DNA from: Escherichia phage sortkaff | Sequence record: MN850581.1 | DNA length: 42,446 nucleotides | Strand: one strand, 5' to 3' | Shown: positions 67 to 42,446 of the stretch, piece by piece | How positions within the stretch are numbered: the stretch's first letter is position 1 | Layout: each line of letters starts with the position of its first letter | The notes under the pieces: model-generated | Databases searched by the model: none | Seen by the model: only the letters and a program-made list of their open reading frames with translations | What the model was told of the DNA's origin: nothing | Translations under genes and position numbers: made by a program

Positions 67-88
67 GTCGTCTATCACTGGACCGTTA

Positions 89-382
89 TCAAGTGGAGCG
101 CCCCGGCGAGAGGTCAGGGCATAGGTGCATATTCTCCGCCGTGATGGGCCAGGGGCTAACCGGGTGGGCGTAGGCCAGCTTGTCGGCCCGTTTGGCGATG
201 TAGCCCGTGCGCTTGCCCGTGTCCTCAAACTTCGCACAGATAACGCACGTCCCGTTACTGGTGAAACGGGTGAAGTTGCCCCGGTGCGCCTTGCACTCGA
301 TCCCCCGGTAGGTGGGGACTTTCATCGCGATAGCCTGCGCGCGGCTGAATGCGACGGGTTTCTCCTTCGTCGCGCCCGCCAT
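89..382 (-). CDS. hypothetical small protein, possible zinc-binding (C-x2-H ... C-x2-C)
   Basis: 97-aa ORF; its ATG overlaps the stop of the upstream gene (TAATG), suggesting translational coupling. Cys/His cluster CKAHRGNFTRFTSNGTCVIC. Confidence 0.5.
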   Translation of the reverse strand: MAGATKEKPVAFSRAQAIAMKVPTYRGIECKAHRGNFTRFTSNGTCVICAKFEDTGKRTGYIAKRADKLAYAHPVSPWPITAENMHLCPDLSPGRST

Positions 383-2219: not shown

Positions 2220-2248
2220 AAGATAACGGAAGCGTGATATTAATGCAA
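2220..2248 (-). promoter_or_regulatory. sigma70-like promoter (-35 TTGCAT, 17-bp spacer, -10 TATCTT) with ATCACGCTTCC in the spacer
   Basis: Minus-strand reading TTGCAT-taatATCACGCTTCCgt-TATCTT; near-identical in layout and spacer to the Dam promoter at 15484..15512. Confidence 0.45.
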
Positions 2249-4631: not shown

Positions 4632-5081
4632 GTAACGAAACCGTTACAGCTTGAGAATGTTACACACGATCGCGATTAACAGCGTTAACCCTGCGCCGTA
4701 GACTGCGAAACATATCCAGAGAAATGTCCACGATCCGACGGCTTCCCGGAGTGGTGTTTCCTGCTCCGGCGATGTTCTCCCTCGCGCTTTCCGGGAGGGG
4801 AATTTTATCACGTTAATAGTATGCTCCTTTGCATCACGTTTCAATGATAATTATGTGTGGAAATGGTCGGGGGTTTTGGGGTTTTAACCCCCGGCAAAAT
4901 CCCCGCCGTAACACTCAAAAAATACCCGTTACCGGAATGGCTGTAAGTTACTGAATATCATCGGTAACATTGTCGGTGTAACAGTGTTACCTTTTTGAAA
5001 CTTCGGAGCCACTGGGTAACGGTAACATAAATATATACCCCCTTTAGGGGGTATATGTTATGTAACCCGTGACCGTTACCA
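4632..5081. repeat. cluster of GTAAC/GTTAC iteron-like repeats and palindromes in a roughly 480-bp largely non-coding region
   Basis: About 13 GTAAC/GTTAC pentamers in about 450 bp: palindrome GTAACGAAACCGTTAC (4632-4647), CGGTAACAttgtCGGTGTAACAGTGTTAC (4962-4990), GGTAACGGTAAC (5015-5026), GTAACccgtgaccGTTAC (5062-5079). Also a 10-bp-arm palindrome ATATACCCCC-TTTA-GGGGGTATAT (5033-5056) and hairpin CGGGGGTT/AACCCCCG (4868-4893). Confidence 0.6.
4816..4844 (-). promoter_or_regulatory. sigma70-like promoter (-35 TTGAAA, 17-bp spacer, -10 TACTAT) with CGTGAT in the spacer and again just after the -10
   Basis: Minus-strand reading TTGAAA-CGTGATgcaaaggagca-TACTAT-taaCGTGAT; would drive the downstream early small genes (4611 leftward). 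Confidence 0.4.
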
Positions 5082-8637: not shown

Positions 8638-8985
8638 ATGACAACAATCATTTACGCCTTACCTAAGCGCACATCACACGCGCGCACGTCTCGATCCACG
8701 CCACTGATCAGCCGTAAAAATTACAGCCTGATTACAGTCGGCGAGCTGGTGAAGTCCACGCCGAAAGGGAAGAAAATTATCCCGCTCTGGTACAACAATC
8801 CGCGCCCCCAGTTTTTCGGGAGCGACTCTTATCACTTTTTCGATAACGTCAAAGACGCGGCGGAGCATATCCGGCACGAGCTGGCCGGGACGTACAAACT
8901 TCTTAACGATCAGGCGAAGTTTATCGCGGAGCTGATCGAGGAGGCGGATCAGATCTACATATCAGCCACGGATCCAACGGCATGA
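8638..8985 (+). CDS. hypothetical protein
   Basis: 115-aa ORF with RBS GGAG (cacccaGGAGcaagccATG). Confidence 0.65.
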   Translation: MTTIIYALPKRTSHARTSRSTPLISRKNYSLITVGELVKSTPKGKKIIPLWYNNPRPQFFGSDSYHFFDNVKDAAEHIRHELAGTYKLLNDQAKFIAELIEEADQIYISATDPTA

Positions 8986-9203
8986 TCCCGGCGGACATTC
9001 AGCGCAAGGCTAAAAAGGTCCTCCAGCGCCACCTCGCCGGGGAGATTAAGCCCCGGAAGCTGGTCGGCGGTCTGGGCCTCGCGCTGGAGGTTGGTTATCG
9101 CTGGCGGCTGCTGTCACGCGATAAGGGCCAGACGTGGGATCTCATGTCCCACGAGAAGTACAACAAACTTACACGGGGCAAAAAGCCCCCTAAAATGAGA
9201 TGA
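8982..9203 (+). CDS. hypothetical small basic protein
   Basis: 73-aa ORF; start overlaps the upstream stop (ATGA). Confidence 0.55.
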   Translation: MIPADIQRKAKKVLQRHLAGEIKPRKLVGGLGLALEVGYRWRLLSRDKGQTWDLMSHEKYNKLTRGKKPPKMR

Positions 9204-10926: not shown

Positions 10927-10949
10927 GGGGCCTTGCGGCCCCTTTTTTT
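10927..10949 (+). terminator. rho-independent terminator of the lysis operon
   Basis: GGGGCC-ttgc-GGCCCC followed by T7; the T-tract overlaps the stop of the convergent Ig-like gene. Confidence 0.75.
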
Positions 10950-11949
10950 ATGCGGTGACGGTGAGAGCGCAAGCCGTGGAGGTTGCAGTCTTTCCGCCCG
11001 CGTCAGTAACGCGGCAAGTGTAGGATCCTGCGTCGCCAGACGCCGCTCCGGTTTTCGTGAACGTGGCCGACGTTGCGCCGGAAACTGCTACGCCATCCTT
11101 AAGCCACTGATAGGTTAACGGGGCTACGCCGCCGGAAGCCTGCACAGGGCCGATCGAGATATTGCCACCAGTAGCGACGGAGGACGTCGCCGGGGGCTGC
11201 GTCGTAAACGCCGGGAGCGTGTTTAACGTCACGGCGCAAGCCTGAGACGTAACGGAGCCTTGCGGCACGGCGCTGTCCTTCACAATACACGTATACGTCG
11301 CATTGTCCCCGGTCGCGGCGGTTTTGGTATACGTGGCCGCCGTGGCCCCGGCGATGTTTACGCCGTTTTTCTGCCACTGGTAGGAGTACGGCGCGAGGCC
11401 GCCAGCCGCTGCGACGGTCAGCGTCAACGGGTCGCCGATGTAGACGGCTTTAGTCGGCGTCAGGTTGGTAGAGAGGGACAGGGCGACTTTGAGGCGGATC
11501 CGCTGGGAGTCCTTCGTCTGGCCCTGGCTGTCCGTCACGGTCACGTAATAGTCGCCGTTGTTGCTCGCCTGGTAGTTGGCGATCGCATAGCTCGGCGAGT
11601 TGGATCCGACGTTAACAGTCGTCCCGCCGGAGACTTTCTTCCACTGGTAGGACAGCGGAGCGATCCCCCCAGAGGCGGCGACGGTCAGCGTCTGCGTTGC
11701 GCCAGCCGCGACGAAGGTCGATCCGGCATCACCGCCAGCCACGCCGGGGAGGTCCTGCGTAAACACGATCGGAGGTAGCAGGTTCGGATCGTACTCGATG
11801 TAAAACATTTTCGTGGGGTCGAGGTTAGTCGGGTCAGCGTCTAACCAGATAAGATCTTTTTGCGGAGTCGCGCCGCTGGCCGGATCCTCGATCCGGGTGA
11901 CTTTCCAGCCCAGCAAGTCCGGGCGGTAGTAGCGATGCCAGTAACCCAT
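10948..11949 (-). CDS. protein with three tandem bacterial Ig-like domains after a 95-aa N-terminal domain
   Basis: 333 aa; three repeats of about 80 aa each containing P(L/Y)(S/T)YQW(K/Q/L)K and Y(Y/T)(V/C) motifs typical of Ig-like folds; RBS GAGGA; bounded by terminators on both sides. Confidence 0.8.
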   Translation of the reverse strand: MGYWHRYYRPDLLGWKVTRIEDPASGATPQKDLIWLDADPTNLDPTKMFYIEYDPNLLPPIVFTQDLPGVAGGDAGSTFVAAGATQTLTVAASGGIAPLSYQWKKVSGGTTVNVGSNSPSYAIANYQASNNGDYYVTVTDSQGQTKDSQRIRLKVALSLSTNLTPTKAVYIGDPLTLTVAAAGGLAPYSYQWQKNGVNIAGATAATYTKTAATGDNATYTCIVKDSAVPQGSVTSQACAVTLNTLPAFTTQPPATSSVATGGNISIGPVQASGGVAPLTYQWLKDGVAVSGATSATFTKTGAASGDAGSYTCRVTDAGGKTATSTACALTVTA

Positions 11950-15483: not shown

Positions 15484-15512
15484 AACATAATGGAAGCGTG
15501 ATTTTATTTCAA
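15484..15512 (-). promoter_or_regulatory. sigma70-like promoter for the Dam operon (-35 TTGAAA, 17-bp spacer, -10 TATGTT) with ATCACGCTTCC in the spacer
   Basis: Minus-strand reading TTGAAA-taaaATCACGCTTCCat-TATGTT-aATTGCG; closely matches the promoter at 2220..2248; RBS AAAGGA before the Dam ATG. Confidence 0.45.
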
Positions 15513-16429: not shown

Positions 16430-16497
16430 GTTGTCCTCCGGTTAATTCTGCATTACTATAAATCACGCTTTAATGATATTACAAGGAATAAAAAGGC

Positions 16498-18999: not shown

Positions 19000-19028
19000 T
19001 TGCGAACATCACGAAAGCATGATATAAA
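19000..19028 (+). promoter_or_regulatory. sigma70-like promoter (-35 TTGCGA, 17-bp spacer, -10 TATAAA) with ATCACGA in the spacer
   Basis: TTGCGA-acATCACGAaagcatga-TATAAA upstream of the exonuclease gene. Confidence 0.45.
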
Positions 19029-21427: not shown

Positions 21428-21868
21428 ATGAAACAATGTACAATCTGCAAAGAGCTTAAGCCGCTGGAGGCGTTCCACAGAAACCGGAGCAAAAAGGACG
21501 GGCGTGACTGCCGCTGTAGCGCCTGCAAAAACGCGAAGGGCCGGAGCTACTACCACGCCGATCCAGTGCGCAAAGAGAAGATCATCGCCAGCGTAAAGGC
21601 ATACCAGGCCGGACCGGGACGCGAGCTGGCAAACGCCACAAAGTCGGCATACCACACGCGACACGCCAAAAAGCGGCGCGCTCATAATCTGGTCTATAAC
21701 GCGTTAAGGCGCGGGGACCTCGTGAAAAGCCCGTGTGAGTGTTGCGGGGAGTTAAAGGTGGTAGGGCATCACGACGACTACGATCGCCCGTTAGACGTGC
21801 GCTGGCTTTGCGAGAGGCATCACAAGGAATGGCATCGGCTCCACGGGGAAGCCTTAAATCCCGATTGA
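21428..21868 (+). CDS. HNH endonuclease
   Basis: 146 aa; N-terminal CTIC ... CRCSAC zinc knuckle and C-terminal HNH core CECCG ... HH ... N ... WLCERHH. Confidence 0.7.
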   Translation: MKQCTICKELKPLEAFHRNRSKKDGRDCRCSACKNAKGRSYYHADPVRKEKIIASVKAYQAGPGRELANATKSAYHTRHAKKRRAHNLVYNALRRGDLVKSPCECCGELKVVGHHDDYDRPLDVRWLCERHHKEWHRLHGEALNPD

Positions 21869-21893
21869 CGTAAATCACTAACTAATTAATAAT
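21865..21893 (+). promoter_or_regulatory. sigma70-like promoter (-35 TTGACG, 17-bp spacer, -10 AATAAT) with AATCAC repeats
   Basis: TTGACG-taaATCACtaactaatt-AATAAT-cACGGAG; upstream of the XRE regulator gene; ATCACG spans the -10/+1 junction. Confidence 0.4.
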
Positions 21894-21910
21894 CACGGAG
21901 ACGTTAACAA

Positions 21911-22138
21911 ATGTTGGAGCCTATGATGGCACAGAAACTTAAGCCCGTTTGCCTCGTGAAAGAAGTCCGCGAGGCGAAGGGCGTAAAACAGAAAGATTTA
22001 GCGGACGCGACGGGCATCCTCCAGCAACGTTTAAGCTGCTATGAGAACGGCCACGAGCTGCCGTCTGTAACTAACCTCTGCCGCCTGGCTATGGCGTTGG
22101 ATGTTTCCATTAACGATCTGATCGAGTACGGGGTGTAA
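21911..22138 (+). CDS. XRE-family helix-turn-helix transcriptional regulator (Cro/CI-type)
   Basis: 75-aa ORF; HTH signature QKDLADATGILQQRLSCYENG; most likely start is the ATG at 21926 (GGAG 6 nt upstream). Confidence 0.7.
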   Translation: MLEPMMAQKLKPVCLVKEVREAKGVKQKDLADATGILQQRLSCYENGHELPSVTNLCRLAMALDVSINDLIEYGV

Positions 22139-24929: not shown

Positions 24930-24967
24930 TTATCGCTCCATTAGAAAGGGGGCTTGCGCCCCCGTTG

Positions 24968-30934: not shown

Positions 30935-32395
30935 TTAGCTTACGCGGACGCGCGCACGGGACAGCGTGGCAGGCGTAGCGCCTACGGTGCGGATCTTGAA
31001 TCCGACGACGGTCCGGCAACGTCCGACCTTGTGCAAAATAACGCGTTTTAGCCACTGCTGCGGCGTGTTGTAGTCGATCAGGATCTCCTGTCCGAATACG
31101 CTCCCGTCCTCCGTGGCGCTGATCCACATCCGGCTCGTTACGCTGTCGCCGCCCACGCTGGCGTCGATCTCGAAGTCGCTTAACATCATGCCCGTAAACG
31201 GCATCAGCGGCGTATAGAGGACGATCTCCTGGTCTGCCCCGTACTGCGCGCAAGTGGTCATATCAAACGCGCCCAGTACCGCCAGCGTCTTGTCTCCGAC
31301 CGTTACGCGGTTCCCTTCGTTAACGTAGTCGATCGCGCGGTGCGGTCCGCTGGCATTTTGTACGCCCGTTTTAATGATCGTCCAGACCGGGAGGCCCTGC
31401 GCCTGGCTAACCGGGTGATCGTAGACGAGCGTTTGATCCGGTAAGTGGACAATAAGCAATTTATGGCTTTCAAAGCTGATCGCCTCCAGTCGCGTTTGTT
31501 GGAGCTGGGCCACGGTGTACCCGGCCAGAATCTTTTTAACCTGCACGGAGGCCAGATCAGACCAGTCTCCGCCGCCGGGGTTCATCAGCGCGATCGTGTA
31601 CTCGCCCACGAAAGGCGACGTAAGAAATGCGAAGCTGTTCAGGTACTGGCATACGGTTTCACGGCCCAGCGTCCCGGCCTCGACGGTGTAGGATGGCTGA
31701 TTGGCGTAAACGTTCTGGGCGTCCCCGGTCAGGCCGAAAAACTCGATCGAGGCGGTCCCGAAGCAAATCACGTAATCGCGCCACGCCCTGATCGCCACGA
31801 TGCCGTCCGGCATGGACTCCGCACGATAGAACGGCGCGATCTTGTCCGGGTGGCTCTCGTCCTCCAGCGAGGAGATCCAGAAAGTGTCCGAATTTTTCAC
31901 GCTGAAAATGTAGCGCTGGCGGAGGTGGCACACGTCGTTAATGTCGCCCCAGGTGAATTGCGGGTTGTTGACGCCCGTCCCGGAGTCCAGCGGCCAGTTA
32001 CTAAACGTCTTGCGGGTCCCGTCGTAGCGGTAGAGTAAGAGCTGGTTTCCGGTCACGACGCCCTGAGAATCGCGGCTATGGGCCATAGGAGTACGATCCT
32101 CGCCGTTGACGTCGCCGACCTCCACGCCTGCGTTATACAGCTTGCCGCCCATTACCCTATAAGCGGAGTTCGAAACCGTGTTCCAGTCGGAGCCACGGGA
32201 CAGGCCCGCCACGTCCGCGACTTTCTTAAGCCCCGGCATCATGCGCATATAGCCGTTACCGCCCTTAATCTGGCGAGCAATGGCGAGCATGTTCTCCGGT
32301 AGCCGGGTGATCCAGTCGAAGTCCGTCCGGCTGCGGCCATCACCGAAAACGATCGGCAGGTTAACGACCTGCCCGCGTTGCGCATAAGCTCCCAT
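30935..32395 (-). CDS. tail hub protein (P22 gp10-like by position and size)
   Basis: 486-aa ORF; synteny with the P22 late operon. Confidence 0.6.
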   Translation of the reverse strand: MGAYAQRGQVVNLPIVFGDGRSRTDFDWITRLPENMLAIARQIKGGNGYMRMMPGLKKVADVAGLSRGSDWNTVSNSAYRVMGGKLYNAGVEVGDVNGEDRTPMAHSRDSQGVVTGNQLLLYRYDGTRKTFSNWPLDSGTGVNNPQFTWGDINDVCHLRQRYIFSVKNSDTFWISSLEDESHPDKIAPFYRAESMPDGIVAIRAWRDYVICFGTASIEFFGLTGDAQNVYANQPSYTVEAGTLGRETVCQYLNSFAFLTSPFVGEYTIALMNPGGGDWSDLASVQVKKILAGYTVAQLQQTRLEAISFESHKLLIVHLPDQTLVYDHPVSQAQGLPVWTIIKTGVQNASGPHRAIDYVNEGNRVTVGDKTLAVLGAFDMTTCAQYGADQEIVLYTPLMPFTGMMLSDFEIDASVGGDSVTSRMWISATEDGSVFGQEILIDYNTPQQWLKRVILHKVGRCRTVVGFKIRTVGATPATLSRARVRVS

Positions 32396-33399: not shown

Positions 33400-33441
33400 T
33401 GGAGACACTCCTCTGGTTAGTTAACGGGACAAGTATAAGCG

Positions 33442-33467
33442 AAAAAAAAGGGGCCACAAAGGCCCCC
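33442..33467 (-). terminator. rho-independent terminator immediately after the major capsid gene
   Basis: Minus-strand stem GGGGCC-uuugu-GGCCCC followed by U8; about 25 nt after the coat stop; an A8 tract precedes it on plus, so it could also work for plus-strand transcripts. Confidence 0.7.
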
Positions 33468-35754: not shown

Positions 35755-35811
35755 TGTAGATCCCCGTTTTGTTGCATACGCGATGTATTTCGCCCATCGG
35801 TGGCGGGGATA

Positions 35812-35841
35812 AGTGTAAGAGAAGTTTTACATCATATGCAA
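35812..35841 (-). promoter_or_regulatory. candidate promoter upstream of scaffold (-35 TTGCAT, 18-bp spacer, -10 TACACT)
   Basis: Minus-strand reading of the 127-bp gap between the cassette and the scaffold gene; weak call. Confidence 0.25.
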
Positions 35842-35881
35842 GGGGGAAAGGTTTAAGGCCGATCCCCCCAGAGGTGGCGGG

Positions 35882-36148
35882 CTATTTCGTGGCGGCTTTC
35901 ACGAGGCATTGAGACAGATATAGCGCTTCGTGGTGCGGCGGGACCGAAGCGGGGATCACGCAGTACAGCGCGACGTTAGGCCCCGTGTTCGCGTGGATCA
36001 TTTCGCTGGCGACTATCCGCCACTTTTCGCCGTCCGGCCCGGTCAGGATGCCGTCGAGGTCGTGTAGTTCTTCCTTGACCTGCGCGATCCGGCTTAACGT
36101 TGTCGGTCCCTTCCCTGGGAACGCGAGATAGTGATGGACGGTTTTCAA
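35882..36148 (-). CDS. hypothetical protein (cassette gene D)
   Basis: 88-aa ORF whose start overlaps the stop of gene C (ATGA). Confidence 0.55.
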   Translation of the reverse strand: MKTVHHYLAFPGKGPTTLSRIAQVKEELHDLDGILTGPDGEKWRIVASEMIHANTGPNVALYCVIPASVPPHHEALYLSQCLVKAATK

Positions 36149-36615
36149 AATGGTATGTCCAGCGGCTTGTCGTTGTTGGCCGGAGGAACGATCTCGGCGT
36201 CCTCCACGTCCTCCGCTTTGCGCGGGTTCACTTCGCGGGCTGCGTCCGCTGCGGCCACAAAATCGCCCTCCAGCGGCCCCTTGTAGGTCAGTTGTTTAAT
36301 GCTGGCGATATCTGCGAGGAGCTTCGACTCTGCCACTACAAAGTCGGCGCGGAGTTTCTGGAGTCCGGCTTCCATGATCGGGAGGCTGATCTCTGCCTGC
36401 TCCTCGGCGGTCGGCATGGTGTAATCAATATCGATCTCGATCTCTTTTAACAGGACGTAAGCCGCATTTTTGCCGCCTGAATTAATATGCTCCTGGACGC
36501 CCCAGATCGCGCCGTAATCGTAACTTTCCACGGACACGGATCCGCGCTTGTCGCCGCCCTGGCTACCTTCGGCCACGCAAAGGCAAACGTACATTGTTTT
36601 TTTGATAGTTGGCAT
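36145..36615 (-). CDS. hypothetical protein (cassette gene C)
   Basis: 156-aa ORF; RBS AAGAGGA; no recognisable motif. Confidence 0.65.
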   Translation of the reverse strand: MPTIKKTMYVCLCVAEGSQGGDKRGSVSVESYDYGAIWGVQEHINSGGKNAAYVLLKEIEIDIDYTMPTAEEQAEISLPIMEAGLQKLRADFVVAESKLLADIASIKQLTYKGPLEGDFVAAADAAREVNPRKAEDVEDAEIVPPANNDKPLDIPF

Positions 36616-36664
36616 TGTCTCTAATCCTCTTTGGGGTGGGGCGGGACGATGCCCGCCGCCGGGG

Positions 36665-37081
36665 TTATTTGTTGCGAGCGCCGATCATGCCCTGCCACAT
36701 GAAAACGACGGTATCAGATAACAGCTCTTTCACCTCGTCCTCGCCCATCTGCTCATAAAGCGAATCAAGCGCGCCGGGGATCTGCTCCCATAGTGCCTTT
36801 TGCCCTTCTTCCACCTGCGCGTCCGTCGGCTGGAGCTGGACCTCGATCGGGGAGGGTTCAGTGTCGCCGGACTTGACGCGGGGGTGAGCGTTAGCCATGA
36901 GGGCCTCGGCCTGCATACCCACCAGCGCGAACGCCGTCGCCAGTGCCGCCAGATCCTCCTCGGTCGGCTGCTGGATAAACATCTGGGCCAGACGGGCCTC
37001 CATAGTGCGGACCTTATCGCCGATCCCGTTCTCGTCGCACTCGGCCAGAATGATCGCGCGCGCTGCTTTTACTTGATCCAT
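36665..37081 (-). CDS. hypothetical acidic protein (cassette gene B)
   Basis: 138-aa ORF; RBS GAGAGAGAA. Confidence 0.65.
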   Translation of the reverse strand: MDQVKAARAIILAECDENGIGDKVRTMEARLAQMFIQQPTEEDLAALATAFALVGMQAEALMANAHPRVKSGDTEPSPIEVQLQPTDAQVEEGQKALWEQIPGALDSLYEQMGEDEVKELLSDTVVFMWQGMIGARNK

Positions 37082-37132
37082 TGTGTTCTCTCTCGTCGGT
37101 TAATGATGCCCCGGCGGTCCGGGGCGGTCTGG

Positions 37133-37570
37133 TTATGCGTTGCCCTGCGCCTGAGCGGCCAGGAGCTGGATAATCGGCTCCACGTCGGCCTCCGCCGCCG
37201 GGATAGGCAGGTCAACCACGCCGCGCGGCTCGCCTTTGGAAATGTGGAATTTCCAGATCGCCATCACGTCGTCCAGCGAGTAGCCCGCCAGGATCTCCTC
37301 GTGGATCTTCTGCGCGCCGTTGGTTTCGTTAAACTCCAGGACCTGATCAACGGTCGGCATCTGGTTCCCGAATTTCGCCATTGTGCGGGCCATGACGACC
37401 ACGCCGACGCCACGGGACAGGAAGGTGTTACCCTGCTCGCCGCCGGAAACCATCACGGCGATCTCCGGCTCGTCGGTGTTCGGGTGGTAGGCAAGGGCGA
37501 GGGTAACGAAGCCGCCGCGCGGGGTGACTTCGAAAACGCGAGCTGCTGGGGTGGTGGTGATCTCTTTCAT
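37133..37570 (-). CDS. hypothetical protein (cassette gene A)
   Basis: 145-aa ORF; RBS GAGAGAGGA; preceded by its own promoter and operator-like palindrome. Confidence 0.65.
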   Translation of the reverse strand: MKEITTTPAARVFEVTPRGGFVTLALAYHPNTDEPEIAVMVSGGEQGNTFLSRGVGVVVMARTMAKFGNQMPTVDQVLEFNETNGAQKIHEEILAGYSLDDVMAIWKFHISKGEPRGVVDLPIPAAEADVEPIIQLLAAQAQGNA

Positions 37571-37588
37571 GGTGTCCTCTCTCAGTTA

Positions 37589-37645
37589 ATCACGATAGCG
37601 TGATGTTGTGTGAGAAAGAATAGCCCGGACGTACCGGGCTGTAAA
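37589..37645 (-). promoter_or_regulatory. promoter (-35 TTTACA, 17-bp spacer, -10 TATTCT) plus 16-bp near-palindrome ATCACGATAGCGTGAT in the leader
   Basis: Minus-strand reading TTTACA-GCCCGGTACGTCCGGGC-TATTCT; the spacer is the portal terminator stem-loop; near-palindrome at plus 37589-37604 lies about +6 to +21. Confidence 0.45.
37611..37640 (-). terminator. rho-independent terminator after the portal gene
   Basis: Minus-strand stem AGCCCGG-uacgu-CCGGGCU followed by AUUCUUUCUC, about 30 nt after the portal stop. Confidence 0.55.
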
Positions 37646-37671
37646 GTGTTTTTTTACTGCTTTCGTTAAAA

Positions 37672-39906
37672 TTATTGTGCGGCACGTTCCAGGGTGTTGT
37701 CGGCCTGCTGCTGCGCCTGGCGCTCGGCCAGTTGCTGCGCTGCTCGGTCGCTCTGGATCTGGTGGCCCTGCCCTACGGATTTCAGGAACAAGTCGGCCTG
37801 TTTGTGCGCGTCCTGGCTCTGGGCCGTGACGTACTTCTGGAGGATGGCAACGGCGGCCATTAGCTGATCCTGCGGGATAGCTGCGGCCTCGGCCATCGTC
37901 TTGACGGTCTGCGCCTGCTTGAGCTGGCCGTCTGCCTGCGTCCCCTGCGCCTTGAGCTGCAATTCTAAGCGCTTGTTGTCCTGCTCCATAACGGCGGCCT
38001 TGCCCTGGTCTGCCACGCCCTGCGCTGCGACCATCTGCGCGTCCGGCTGGTCCTGCTGGCTCTGCTGGGCCTGCGCTACCATCTGTTTTTCCTCGTCCGT
38101 CTGCGGCTTCACAATGCCGGAGAGTAAAAGCTGGTTGCGGGTGTACTCTTTGAAGTCCTGGAGGCCCTCGCCGTCCATGTTCGCGATGATCAGGCTCATG
38201 ACGATCGTCGCGTTAGGGTCGCCCGGTTGCATGGTCGCTAACAGGTTAGTCAGGCTGCGGACAGTCTGCTGGCGTCGCGTCTGGGAGGACTCGCCGACGT
38301 CGGCCACGATCTCATATTTGCCGCGCTTGAGGTCGTTAATCGCGATCACTTCCTTCGTCTCGCGATCGACTACCTTCCCGGTCATTAACACGAGGTCGTC
38401 GCTCCCGTCCTCCTGCTGGATCCTCACGTAAGACTCGGAGCCGTAAACCTTGCGAGCGGCGGACAGGTAGACGCGGCCACAATGGCGCAACGTCTTAGCC
38501 AGGTTGTCCATGTAGAGCGCGCCCTGGCCGTCCATGCGCGCGAAAATTGCCTCCACGGTTTCAGTCGCCAGATTCGACGGCAGCGCTTCGAGCTGGGAGG
38601 ATCCGACAATCTGCTGGATCGTCGCCCCGGTGTACTGGAGAACGGCAGCGAGCGCCGGAGAGAGCGGAGTCGCCGGAGTATAGCCCAGCGGTCCGGCCTG
38701 CTGGACGACCTCACCAGACGCATTACGGAGCGATTTAGCGGGCAGATACGCGGGGCGCTTCGTGTTGCGATCCCCCCAGGCGTTGGCGAGATTTCCGGGG
38801 ATCATGTCGATATCCATGATCGGGATGTTGTCGCCGCCTGCCTGCGCGGCCTGGTCGGCCATCATCGACACGATCAGGTTTTCCAGACGCTGGGCGTCCA
38901 TCGCGAGCGTGGCGTGGCCCATCACGCGCTCCTGGTTGTCGATAAACGAGCGGCGCGCGTTGAAGATGAAAACCGGGATCCATTCGAACGGGATCAGCTT
39001 CGGCTCCTCGATCCACTCCCCGCCGGAAAACAGACCGCAATAGACCTTACGACGTTTGACACGGCGATCCTTGAGCTTTTTCCAGCCTGCGGCCTTAAGC
39101 TCGTCGAAAACCTGCTCCATGTCGTCCTCGTCGTAGACCTCCGTTTCCCCGGTGAGCGGGTTCTGGTAGGAGATCACGGTGGTGTCCTCGATCTTCACCT
39201 CGTAGTAACGGGCGATATAAATCGCGTCTTTAGAGGCCCAGTCAAACCATTTGCCCGTGTTCAGCTCCATGAGGTCCTCCGGGGCCATCGCGTCCGGGTA
39301 ACGCTCCTCGTACTTCTCCGGGGTCATGCTGAATAGCTCGGCCATCCACATAGCATCACTGCGATCGTACATTTTGGAGTCAGGATCGACAAAGAGGCAC
39401 GAGGCCGGATCGTAGATCGGGTAAAAGACGATGTGCCGCTCCTCGTTGTCGGGATCAAATTCGTCCTCCAGCTCCGTGTCCATGCGAAACGCGCCCATCC
39501 CGCCGTCGATGCCGTCGCCGTAAGTGTTATCGACGGACTCCGGCCCGTTGCTCTCGTTGTAGTCGGCGCGGAATTTGCCGTTTAGCTTGTCGGCCAGCTC
39601 CTCGGATGCCTTTTCGTCCTTCGGACGGAATACCACGGAGACACGGTTTAGGCGGTAATCGGTGATCAGGCGGTCGCACTCGCGGGCCACTTTGTTAAGT
39701 TCGAATCGAGGGTATTTCTCGAATCGTTCATCATCCATCGCAAAGCCGGAGTTGGTCGATCCTTCCCACTGCGCGCCCGGAATACGGACAAAGCGCTGGG
39801 TTTCGATCATTTTCTTGCGGCTTTGCTCCTCGCTGGCGATCGTCTGGCTCAGGCGCTTACGCGCCGTCTCATGCCAGTTCTGGGCCGATTTGGTGACTCG
39901 TGCCAT
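37672..39906 (-). CDS. portal protein, P22 gp1-like
   Basis: 744 aa; similarity to P22 portal recalled from memory (ARYYEVKIEDTTVISYQNPLTGETEVY ... KDRRVKRRKVY versus [27 protein letters not shown] ... AERQIKRRRVY); Gln-rich C-terminal helical region. Confidence 0.9.
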   Translation of the reverse strand: MARVTKSAQNWHETARKRLSQTIASEEQSRKKMIETQRFVRIPGAQWEGSTNSGFAMDDERFEKYPRFELNKVARECDRLITDYRLNRVSVVFRPKDEKASEELADKLNGKFRADYNESNGPESVDNTYGDGIDGGMGAFRMDTELEDEFDPDNEERHIVFYPIYDPASCLFVDPDSKMYDRSDAMWMAELFSMTPEKYEERYPDAMAPEDLMELNTGKWFDWASKDAIYIARYYEVKIEDTTVISYQNPLTGETEVYDEDDMEQVFDELKAAGWKKLKDRRVKRRKVYCGLFSGGEWIEEPKLIPFEWIPVFIFNARRSFIDNQERVMGHATLAMDAQRLENLIVSMMADQAAQAGGDNIPIMDIDMIPGNLANAWGDRNTKRPAYLPAKSLRNASGEVVQQAGPLGYTPATPLSPALAAVLQYTGATIQQIVGSSQLEALPSNLATETVEAIFARMDGQGALYMDNLAKTLRHCGRVYLSAARKVYGSESYVRIQQEDGSDDLVLMTGKVVDRETKEVIAINDLKRGKYEIVADVGESSQTRRQQTVRSLTNLLATMQPGDPNATIVMSLIIANMDGEGLQDFKEYTRNQLLLSGIVKPQTDEEKQMVAQAQQSQQDQPDAQMVAAQGVADQGKAAVMEQDNKRLELQLKAQGTQADGQLKQAQTVKTMAEAAAIPQDQLMAAVAILQKYVTAQSQDAHKQADLFLKSVGQGHQIQSDRAAQQLAERQAQQQADNTLERAAQ

Positions 39907-41546: not shown

Positions 41547-41955
41547 AGCCTAAGCCCTCGTAAGCCCGTTCAATCTGGGTAAACAGCGCGCCGACCAGAT
41601 ACGCCTCCGGCTCGTCGTTCTCCGGTCCCCAGGTGATATTAAAATCATCTGCGATAAAGTTTTTGATGTGGACGACCTCGTGGGCCACGACCGCGCGCCA
41701 GTGCTGGCTCCGCTTAATTTGCACGATCGCCACATAGGCGTCGTCGGTGACGTAGGCCGTCGCTCGGCCACTCTGGCAGGGCTTCGCCGGGTCGCGCCAG
41801 TTCTCCAGCGCCTGATCCATTACCTCCAGGTGCGCGTCGTTCTGCGGGTCGATACAGCAAACGAGATAGGGGTAAGGCGTCGCCAGAAACCACTCGATCC
41901 CCAGCTTGTCGAAGCGCCCGATCGTGTCAGGCGGTAACTTATTTTTTCTGCTCAT
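41530..41955 (-). CDS. HExxH-motif protein, possibly ImmA/IrrE-like zinc metallopeptidase
   Basis: 141 aa; RAVVAHEVVHIKNF fits the AHExxH signature of ImmA/IrrE-type peptidases; overlaps both neighbours. Confidence 0.55.
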   Translation of the reverse strand: MSRKNKLPPDTIGRFDKLGIEWFLATPYPYLVCCIDPQNDAHLEVMDQALENWRDPAKPCQSGRATAYVTDDAYVAIVQIKRSQHWRAVVAHEVVHIKNFIADDFNITWGPENDEPEAYLVGALFTQIERAYEGLGYGKKS

Positions 41956-42446
41956 TCAGGAGGGCCTCCAGCGCATCAAGACGGGCGATCAGGTCGGATA
42001 GTTCTTCTACCTCGGCCCCGTGGCGGATCATCTTCACAATCACCTCGGCAGCGTCGAACGGGAGAATGCCGTCCGCCACAGCCTGCGTGACCTCGCGGAT
42101 CTTGTCGCTGGCTTTGGTCCCCTTGAGTTCAAACTGGTAGATCGGCGCGGTCGGCTTCACGTATGGCACAAGGCGGCTCAGAATGTCGCGCATCATGGAC
42201 GGGTCATAAAGCGACATCTGGATCGCGCGCTGGATGTACATATCCTCGGTCAGCGCCACCTCCACCAGCTCGTCCTCCTGGCGGATTTCGCCCGTCTCCT
42301 TGTCCTCTACGTCGATCTTGCGCCCGGTCTTTTCTTTCACCTTCACTTTTCGGAGGGCGTCGAGTAGGAGGGTGCGGAATTGCTTTTCCCGCCCGCGTCG
42401 CTGCGGCTGGTTATCCTTGCTGAATCGGTTGCCTTTCTTAAGGTTC
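41939..42446 (-). CDS. terS: terminase small subunit, 5'-partial (N-terminus outside window)
   Basis: Reading frame is open to the right window edge (LKKGNRFSKDNQPQRRGREKQF... precedes the listed start); position upstream of the large terminase; family call rests on position and the basic N-terminal motif. Confidence 0.5.
   Translation of the reverse strand, partial: NLKKGNRFSKDNQPQRRGREKQFRTLLLDALRKVKVKEKTGRKIDVEDKETGEIRQEDELVEVALTEDMYIQRAIQMSLYDPSMMRDILSRLVPYVKPTAPIYQFELKGTKASDKIREVTQAVADGILPFDAAEVIVKMIRHGAEVEELSDLIARLDALEALLNEQKK

Follow-up and report, generated by a model that had tools for sequence, protein, structure and literature searches.

What is the function of the short gap behind the portal gene of Escherichia phage sortkaff? 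The question was raised for sequence record MN850581.1 (42,446 nt; this whole stretch is called the window below), in which the 101 bp 3' of the portal gene hold a GC-rich stem-loop, two promoter-like hexamers and a palindrome in front of a cassette of small genes. An initial annotation, made from the sequence alone, had interpreted the arrangement as an insulator built of terminator, promoter and operator, by which the cassette would be expressed or repressed independently of late transcription. The gap was compared with the same locus in related phages, and the palindrome with its copies elsewhere in the genome. The favoured reading, to which a probability of roughly 0.6 was assigned on sequence evidence, combines a leaky terminator, an overlapping sigma-70 promoter and a repressor operator. 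That the three together insulate the cassette is what we infer from this combination.

The gap is laid out as follows, from the portal gene to the first gene of the cassette.

37672-39906, minus strand: portal gene, 744 aa, from the list of open reading frames; stop codon TAA at 37674-37672
37649-37655, minus strand: A7 tract, at about -45 to -39, just 5' of the -35 hexamer
37640-37645, minus strand: -35-like hexamer TTTACA, 5/6 against TTGACA
37639-37623, minus strand: spacer GCCCGGTACGTCCGGGC, exactly 17 nt
37622-37640, minus strand: stem-loop AGCCCGG-TACGT-CCGGGCT (7-bp stem, 5-nt loop), filling the promoter spacer
37617-37622, minus strand: -10-like hexamer TATTCT, a 4/6 match including A2 and T6, doubling as the start of the U-rich tail
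37611-37620, minus strand: pyrimidine tract TTCTTTCTCA, the terminator tail, able to pair with the Shine-Dalgarno region in read-through RNA
37616-37605, minus strand: gap TTCTCACACAAC, 12 nt, between the -10 hexamer and the palindrome
37609-37611, minus strand: predicted transcription start, 6-8 nt past the -10 hexamer by standard sigma-70 geometry
37589-37604, minus strand: operator-like palindrome ATCACGCTATCGTGAT (ATCACG-CTAT-CGTGAT; ATCACGATAGCGTGAT on the plus strand), at about +7 to +22
37588-37571, minus strand: 18-nt gap with GAGAGAGGA, preceding the first ATG of the cassette
37575-37584, minus strand: Shine-Dalgarno region TGAGAGAGGA of the first cassette gene, from sequence and folds
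37570, minus strand: ATG of the 145-aa open reading frame

This layout was read directly from the sequence and agrees with the initial annotation in that TTTACA and TATTCT stand 17 bp apart on the minus strand, with the GC-rich stem-loop as their spacer. The palindrome described there is present, but it does not follow immediately, since 12 nt separate it from the -10 hexamer; it is symmetric in its outer 6+6 bases and not in its central CTAT. The stem reaches 7 bp by taking in one base of each hexamer, the final A of the -35 being paired with the initial T of the -10. Terminator and promoter thus share nucleotides: the stem uses the edge bases of both hexamers, and the tail consists of the same bases as the -10.

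The post-portal gap was aligned from 11 relatives; C130_2, Kc166B and an unrelated viral contig were added later. The closest relative is Klebsiella phage vB_KpnS_IME279 (Sortsnevirus; IME279 below), with about 98% identity to the window. Identities of 77-89% were found for Escherichia phage Sortsne, Kosakonia phage Kc237 and the Murrayvirus phages IME_EC2, sortsyn, ST231, Lumpael, sortregn and KMB41, and Skarpretter, C130_2/STP9, Kc166B and Kc259 are more remote. A portal-based search of IMG/VR for further lineages returned almost only phages already sampled, and one new contig (L041). The group comprises podoviruses of 41-42 kb and about 59% GC with P22-like portal and coat genes; the IME279 orthologue of the portal gene is annotated as portal protein, and homologous 744-aa products carry the Pfam domain PF16510 (P22_portal). 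These phages encode their own helicases, primase, exonuclease, recombinase and single-stranded DNA-binding protein. No RNA polymerase is annotated in IME279 or in the other relatives whose complete annotation was read, and host sigma-70 promoters are therefore to be expected.

The stem-loop starts 32 nt after the portal TAA, has a free energy of -14 kcal/mol (z = -5.3) and was scored as terminator-like on both strands in a consensus scan; across four lineages the hairpin free energies ranged from -12.5 to -15.9 kcal/mol. Pairing in the stem was complete (63/63 cells, 100%) over nine distinct sequences from five related phage groups, with compensatory changes at two stem pairs (GC to CG and GC to AU; 5 cells). 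Shifting the 3' partners by 1-3 columns, as a control, left 0 compensatory changes. Most phages have the stem AGCCCGG/CCGGGCT; Lumpael, sortregn and C130_2 have AGCCCGC/GCGGGCT, and Skarpretter has AGCCCCA/TGGGGCT. The loops are variable (TACGT, CAAGT, TCCG, TTCG, CGGA and GCAA), UUCG and GCAA tetraloops being among them. By this pattern of substitution the stem-loop is judged to be under structural selection, and the signature is that of a hairpin acting at the RNA level, because the stem covaries while promoter spacers need no self-complementarity.

The tail that follows, TATTCTTTCT, has 7 T among its first 10 nt; it passes a simple scan and is interrupted, and far weaker than the T8 after the coat gene. 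With its U-tract interrupted, the terminator is probably leaky, and partial termination is expected. Hairpin and tail are thus probably a leaky intrinsic terminator of the portal transcript. In the unrelated viral contig a near-identical hairpin (loop CACGT) with TATTCTTT follows an unrelated gene, with neither -35 hexamer nor operator; this copy fits a terminator that is able to stand alone.

A known Rfam family was sought and rejected: no match in the whole window reached the gathering score, and near the site only GcvB and Yfr1 appeared below threshold. The GcvB match (20 bits against a threshold of 42; 37527-37655, plus strand) is antisense to the module and was probably driven by the hairpin and the T-run. 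Elsewhere, GCCCAGCAAGTCCGGGC at 11908-11924 on the plus strand matches the portal hairpin of the relatives at 16/17 positions, the loop CAAGT included. It lies opposite codons 8-14 of the gene at 10948-11949 on the minus strand, and its chance expectation was roughly estimated at 1e-3.

For the promoter, the consensus scan gave a 9/12 match for TTTACA-17-TATTCT. Such a score is at chance level, and the case therefore rests on comparison with the relatives. In all of them the -10 hexamer has the same T1, A2, T3 and T6 and varies at positions 4 and 5: it is TATTCT nearly everywhere, TATTAT in Kc166B and Kc259, and TATAGT in Skarpretter, where it is closer to the -10 consensus and makes a worse U-tract. 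It was read as a -10 because an invariant A within a U-tract has no obvious role in termination. A -35-like hexamer is kept 17-18 nt upstream of the -10 in five phage groups, as an invariant TTTACA in the Sortsnevirus clade and Kc237, as AAGACA (spacer 17-18) in Murrayvirus, Skarpretter and C130_2, and as TAAACA in Kc166B. In the Sortsnevirus clade the stretch from the A-tract through TATTCTTT is invariant except for the loop and one base of the A-tract, and the 15-20 nt beside the portal stop diverge; the A6-7 tract and the CAC after it are invariant across these sequences. In its placement, about -45 to -39, the A-tract may correspond to a proximal UP-element subsite of the kind reportedly described by Estrem et al. 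1999. In Kc259, where the cassette is missing and no good terminator is present, TTTACA-17-TATTAT still stands between the portal and scaffold genes. These comparisons support the view that the flanking hexamers behave as promoter elements, beyond being flanks of a terminator.

Two other placements of the promoter were tried and discarded. If the spacer is to contain the palindrome, as at the sites 2223 and 15487, the only candidate is CTCACA...GATTAA (4/6 and 3/6), without T6 and with no leader for the Shine-Dalgarno sequence. A promoter 5' of the hairpin, with the hairpin as a 5' stabiliser, was rejected for want of conservation in the DNA that separates the portal stop from the A-tract.

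The palindrome was then counted over the window. The only perfect ATCACG-N4-CGTGAT is the post-portal copy. With up to two mismatches, 14 matches were obtained against 1.85 expected (shuffle maximum 6), and 8 of these are intergenic in a window of which 7.8% is intergenic DNA (binomial P = 2.5e-6). Seven are fully intergenic, compared with 0.078 expected when each intergenic segment was shuffled separately (maximum 2 in 500 shuffles). A census of perfect 5+5 intergenic palindromes was dominated by GC-rich terminator stems and was replaced by a mismatch-tolerant one; in this, ATCACG was the top-ranked intergenic half-site among all 4096 6-N4-6 palindromes, the other leaders being GC-rich terminator stems. 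The initial annotation had seen the half-site in other promoters of the genome. This was borne out by all intergenic copies (8/8), which overlap predicted core promoters, within -39 to +22, and include that of the XRE gene it had named as a possible regulator. The seven copies outside the post-portal gap, and the XRE gene, are the following.

74-89, minus strand: operator copy at -32 to -17 of TTGATA-17-GACAAT, 5' of the first gene of the packaging module
2223-2238, minus strand: operator copy at -25 to -10, over the spacer and -10 of TTGCAT-17-TATCTT
4833-4848, minus strand: operator copy at -39 to -24, over the -35 of TTGAAA-17-TACTAT, leftward early genes
15487-15502, minus strand: operator copy at -25 to -10 of TTGAAA-17-TATGTT
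16462-16477, no single strand: operator copy in the divergent promoters of primase (-29 to -14) and helicase (-4 to +12), with an orthologous site in 5/5 relatives scanned
19008-19023, plus strand: operator copy at -29 to -14, in the spacer of a promoter 5' of the exonuclease gene
21892-21907, plus strand: operator copy ATCACGGAGACGTTAA at -8 to +8 of the XRE gene's promoter TTGACG-17-AATAAT (21865-21893)
21911-22138, plus strand: XRE-family helix-turn-helix gene (Pfam HTH_3, E = 2e-13; PHROG transcriptional repressor families)

Measured against the predicted promoters, the copies sit at repressor-type positions. Sites orthologous to them were also found in IME279, Sortsne, Kc237, Lumpael and Skarpretter. 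Behind the portal gene the relatives keep the half-sites, and the central 4 nt vary (CTAT, ATAA, AAAC, ACAA): the site is ATCACGATAACGTGAT in the sequences L020 and L028, ATCATGAAACAGTGAT in L019 and L025, and ATCACGAACCAATGAT in Kc237, where it starts 2 nt past the -10 hexamer; in Skarpretter a perfect palindrome, TTCACGACAACGTGAA, occupies the same place. If affinity follows symmetry, the post-portal promoter would be the most tightly controlled one in the genome. Because the same motif overlaps seven other promoters, the regulator's own among them, the cassette promoter would belong to a phage-wide negative-feedback regulon of the Cro type.

A different arrangement was seen in Kc166B. At 2880-2915 on its minus strand the order of -35, hairpin and -10 is kept (TAAACA, AGCCCGG-GCAA-CCGGGCT, TATTAT) and is followed by another inverted repeat, TTGCGT-N16-ACGCAA; no intergenic sites of the ATCACG type were found in this genome.

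The XRE protein is the candidate for the regulator. Its true start is probably the ATG at 21926, which lies 6 nt past a GGAG and agrees with the starts of the orthologues, of which every relative has one. Among solved structures its nearest homologues are the small dimeric repressors DdrO, C.BclI, C.AhdI, SinR and HipB, and no other recognisable DNA-binding or helix-turn-helix protein was detected among the approximately 35 small proteins that were scanned. IME279, Sortsne and Lumpael share the 16-mer ATCACGGAGACGTTAA at the XRE promoter without a change, and Kc237 has it almost unchanged. Autoregulation of XRE is suggested, because this conserved site spans the predicted start of its own promoter. 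Kc166B, the genome without intergenic ATCACG-type sites, has a divergent XRE protein (a single case). On these comparisons, the odds that the XRE protein binds the operator were put at somewhat better than even.

According to the favoured reading, the stem-loop and its U-rich tail would end or attenuate the terminase-portal transcript, probably also protecting its 3' end. A host sigma-70 promoter, consisting of the A-tract, TTTACA, the 17-nt hairpin spacer and TATTCT, would restart transcription at about 37610, and the new transcript would enter the variable cassette of small genes and probably continue towards the scaffold and coat genes. A small dimeric helix-turn-helix repressor of the phage, most likely the XRE protein, would occupy the 16-bp site at +7 to +22 and thereby block the promoter.

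Several observations weigh against this reading. The promoter match is not significant by itself, with 5 such matches per 9.4 kb compared with 2.5 +/- 1.7 in shuffles, and a spacer so rich in GC is less than ideal in a sigma-70 promoter. The AAGACA of Murrayvirus and Skarpretter could be the A-rich flank of a bidirectional terminator instead of a -35 hexamer. Termination may be weak, the U-tract being interrupted by A and C residues (TATTCTTTCTC) where the coat gene is followed by T8, and the tail of Skarpretter is poorer still (TATAGTCTCC). The right half of the post-portal operator is degenerate in Murrayvirus, C130_2 and Sortsne, which have weaker forms of the site. The recognition helix of XRE is LQQR in Sortsnevirus, IPHQ in Murrayvirus and AERQ in Skarpretter at nearly the same half-sites, and so does not clearly identify the binder. 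Finally, the papers in which phages of the group are described are silent on promoters and terminators, and neither a regulatory analysis of Sortsnevirus, Murrayvirus, Skarprettervirus or Hungariovirus nor a transcriptome of any phage of the group was found in the searchable literature.

Part of this evidence would be accommodated if the gap held a terminator only, with TTTACA and TATTCT as incidental A/T-rich flanks and the palindrome as a roadblock to read-through or a part of some other weak promoter. The chance-level promoter score agrees with this, as do the hairpin copy in the unrelated contig, which stands with TATTCTTT and lacks both -35 and operator, and the AAGACA of Murrayvirus and Skarpretter, which as an A-rich flank gives a T-rich tail on the opposite strand. 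Such a terminator leaves the invariant A2 of the -10 unaccounted for, as well as the TATAGT of Skarpretter, which improves the -10 at the expense of the U-tract. In the Sortsnevirus clade TTTACA, which is not an A-tract, is invariant, and the A-tract itself lies 8-9 nt from the stem, too distant to serve a terminator; Kc259 keeps TTTACA-17-TATTAT without terminator-like hairpin and tail. As all seven other operator copies overlap promoters, an operator at this place implies a promoter as well, and a terminator by itself was considered unlikely. The converse, a promoter and operator only, with the hairpin as a stability or processing element of the portal mRNA 3' end or as a feature of the DNA spacer and with essentially complete read-through, was rated quite unlikely. 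It draws on the tail broken by A and C and worse in Skarpretter, on the structural genes downstream, which must still be expressed, and on a hairpin with a weak tail at 24963-24948 that stands inside the late region with no room for a promoter. It is at odds with the anatomy of the element, in which a compensatory stem, loops of the UUCG and GNRA types and a U-rich sequence directly after them are those of an intrinsic terminator, with the terminator-like score of the hairpin in the scan, and with the location of the near-identical copy in the unrelated contig at the end of a gene.

Two further alternatives concern the palindrome. It might act as an RNA hairpin in the 5' untranslated region, for mRNA stability or translation, and not as a DNA operator: AUCACG-CUAU-CGUGAU folds at -4.6 kcal/mol (z = -5), the arms are conserved at the post-portal locus and the loop is variable, and the palindrome lies within a larger stem that includes the anti-Shine-Dalgarno pairing. 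However, most of the seven other copies are wholly or largely 5' of the predicted start and would be absent from the RNA, and many copies, for instance ATCACGCTTCCATTAT and the Murrayvirus site ATCACTAAACCATTAC, are unable to form the stem. The hairpin is also weak, and the RNA initiated at the promoter folds no better than shuffled sequence (z = 0.27), so that this explanation was regarded as very improbable. It is less far-fetched, if still rather unlikely, that the operator is real and is bound by a host transcription factor or an unrecognised phage protein instead of XRE. From genus to genus the recognition helix changes and the half-site hardly at all, and many small early proteins belong to no detectable family. 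Against this stand the site conserved in four lineages at -8 to +8 of the promoter of XRE itself, which is typical of autoregulation, the failure to detect a second helix-turn-helix protein, and Kc166B with its divergent XRE and no intergenic ATCACG-type sites, which is one data point.

The genes that the combined terminator, promoter and operator would control form a variable cassette.

35882-37570, minus strand: cassette of small open reading frames of 145 aa (37133-37570), 138 aa (36665-37081), 156 aa (36145-36615) and 88 aa (35882-36148)

No Pfam matches were obtained for these reading frames, and only one PHROG, of unknown function. The gene content at this fixed position differs across the relatives, even in comparison with the 98%-identical IME279. 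The region of IME279 at 30974-32374, corresponding to 35882-37130 of the window, has an additional 90-aa gene (32055-32327) between the 138-aa and 145-aa genes, and the 88-aa reading frame of the window (35882-36148) stands where IME279 has a 141-bp gap. The cassette is absent from Kc259. In C130_2, STP9 and L041 the module is identical up to the palindrome, and the next gene downstream is a different one. Compared in this way, the control module is taken to be conserved and its cargo exchanged. The GC content of the cassette is not atypical (0.56-0.64 against 0.58-0.65 for its neighbours). No terminator-like site that would close the cassette was found by the window scan at 35755-35881 on the minus strand; the cassettes of STP9 and C130_2 end with a terminator. 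For the first cassette protein (145 aa) 8 homologues were found, all on Sortsnevirus-like contigs. Its AlphaFold model had a predicted local distance difference test (pLDDT) value of 79 and a predicted template modelling score (pTM) of 0.74, and a structure search with it gave no significant neighbour in PDB or BFVD except its own entry from phage sortkaff (100% identical).

On the 3' side of the cassette, the scaffold gene has a conserved promoter-like sequence of its own, TTGCAT-18-TACACT (35841-35812, minus strand), without operator. A conserved leader (CCGATGGGC...CATCGCGTA) lies at 35760-35800 on the minus strand, and both promoter and leader are also present in Kc259 and STP9. Lacking an operator, this promoter would probably keep the scaffold and coat genes expressed while those with operators are repressed. 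Autoregulation of the scaffold is known for P22, to which the scaffold leader might relate.

The pyrimidine tail of the terminator was also examined as a partner of the first Shine-Dalgarno region of the cassette. In read-through RNA, UUCUUUCUCA (37620-37611) pairs with UGAGAGAGGA (37584-37575), in a fold of -15.9 kcal/mol (z = -3.7); RNA initiated at the promoter (start at about 37610) does not contain the pyrimidine tail. The probability that the Shine-Dalgarno region is unpaired was 0.20 in read-through RNA and 0.53 in promoter-initiated RNA of the window, 0.26 and 0.59 in L020, 0.36 and 0.73 in L019, and 0.31 and 0.59 in Skarpretter, where the sequences differ on both sides. Folds of Sortsne, Kc237, Murrayvirus and C130_2 gave no difference between the two RNAs, the effect being lineage-specific. 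As almost any pyrimidine tail will pair with a purine-rich Shine-Dalgarno sequence, the pairing was taken as a lead only.

It is conceivable, though improbable, that the hairpin in the spacer is a device for coupling and gating and not mere compaction, handing over the polymerase and silencing read-through RNA. A polymerase terminating at the portal hairpin would be released or retained on the next promoter, where it could re-initiate, and in RNA that reads through the terminator the pyrimidine tail would mask, by base pairing, the Shine-Dalgarno region ahead of the first cassette gene and silence translation of this gene. Were this so, expression of the cassette would be set solely by the operator-controlled promoter, at the transcriptional and the translational level, and the conserved module would be a fixed junction for the exchange of cassette genes.

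A second junction of terminator and promoter was noticed after the coat gene, at 33432-33467 on the minus strand, where GGGGCC-TTTGT-GGCCCC and T8 are followed by the conserved GCTTATACT. A -10-like TATACT lies at 33437-33432, about 16-17 nt downstream of the TTG formed in the loop and 3' arm; this hairpin shows covariation, and Sortsne, Kc237 and Lumpael all retain the TATACT. Judging from the sequences, the fusion of terminators to restart promoters looks like a habit of these phages that is not universal. The hairpin GGGGGC-GCAA-GCCCCC at 24948-24963 on the minus strand, with a weak tail (TTTCTAATGG), stands in a 38-nt gap before the tailspike gene that is too short to accommodate a promoter. 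It may serve in attenuation or in stabilising the RNA, and it means that the hairpins of the late region are not all fused to promoters.

Two observations were made apart from the module. The first gene of the packaging module spans the end and the start of the window (41939-42446 and 1-14), so the window is a circular permutation, with an offset of about 4.56 kb relative to the IME279 record. A 73-aa early protein (8982-9203, plus strand) carries the Pfam ParE-like toxin domain PF24732 (E = 1e-19).

Each component of the module is standard. In enterobacterial operons the intrinsic terminator of an upstream unit can overlap the sigma-70 promoter of the next; such overlaps are conserved over long evolutionary distances and have been proposed to couple or regulate both units (2019, PMC6735719). 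They are the closest architectural precedent and share the overlap with the phage module. In contrast to them, the phage module lies in a morphogenesis region, its hairpin fills the space between -35 and -10 exactly, an operator is attached, and the downstream unit is a variable cassette and not a fixed operon. T7 class II terminators act as E. coli sigma-70 promoters (bioRxiv 10.64898/2026.02.12.705533), so that one short sequence has both termination and promoter activity, as proposed for the phage module. The T7 signals are hairpin-less, serve T7 RNA polymerase and have an extended -10, whereas the phage module has a hairpin for the host polymerase nested between -35 and -10.

The operator and its candidate binder recall lambdoid Cro/CI and the C proteins of restriction-modification systems, which are small dimeric helix-turn-helix proteins with two-fold symmetric operators of about 16-17 bp. 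In these systems, as in the phage, several degenerate copies lie over core promoters, including that of the regulator itself. The half-site ATCAC presumably resembles the TATCAC of lambda, and we take the spacing ATCAC-N6-GTGAT to be one base pair shorter than lambda's. Where lambdoid phages have clustered OL/OR operators, this phage has its operator copies scattered over 8 promoters. A lysogeny switch was not recognised, and the annotations of IME279 and Sortsne list neither an integrase nor any other gene for lysogeny.

Morons of phages are independently transcribed inserts in late operons (Hendrix and Juhala). The cassette resembles them in that strain-variable small genes with a sigma-70-type promoter of their own lie between two conserved structural genes, and in C130_2 and STP9 it is also closed by a terminator. 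In the window it differs from morons by having neither a convincing terminator nor an atypical GC content, two of their usual marks. It differs further in that the cargo changes behind a conserved promoter module, and in that no lysogeny gene is annotated in IME279 or Sortsne.

What is particular about the post-portal module is the hairpin as an exact 17-nt spacer, the attached operator, and its conservation in five phage groups beside exchangeable cargo. For this group of phages the analysis offers a first regulatory map, of about 8 promoters with one operator and a repressor that is likely Cro-like and autoregulated. The late region may be pictured as transcription units joined by overlaps of terminator and promoter. 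A terminator nested exactly in the spacer of a promoter would also be a convenient substrate for studies of re-initiation and promoter occlusion. The orphan genes of the cassette are candidates for roles in host interaction or anti-defence, and the conserved control point in front of these fast-changing genes would be an obvious site for the insertion of payloads in phage engineering.

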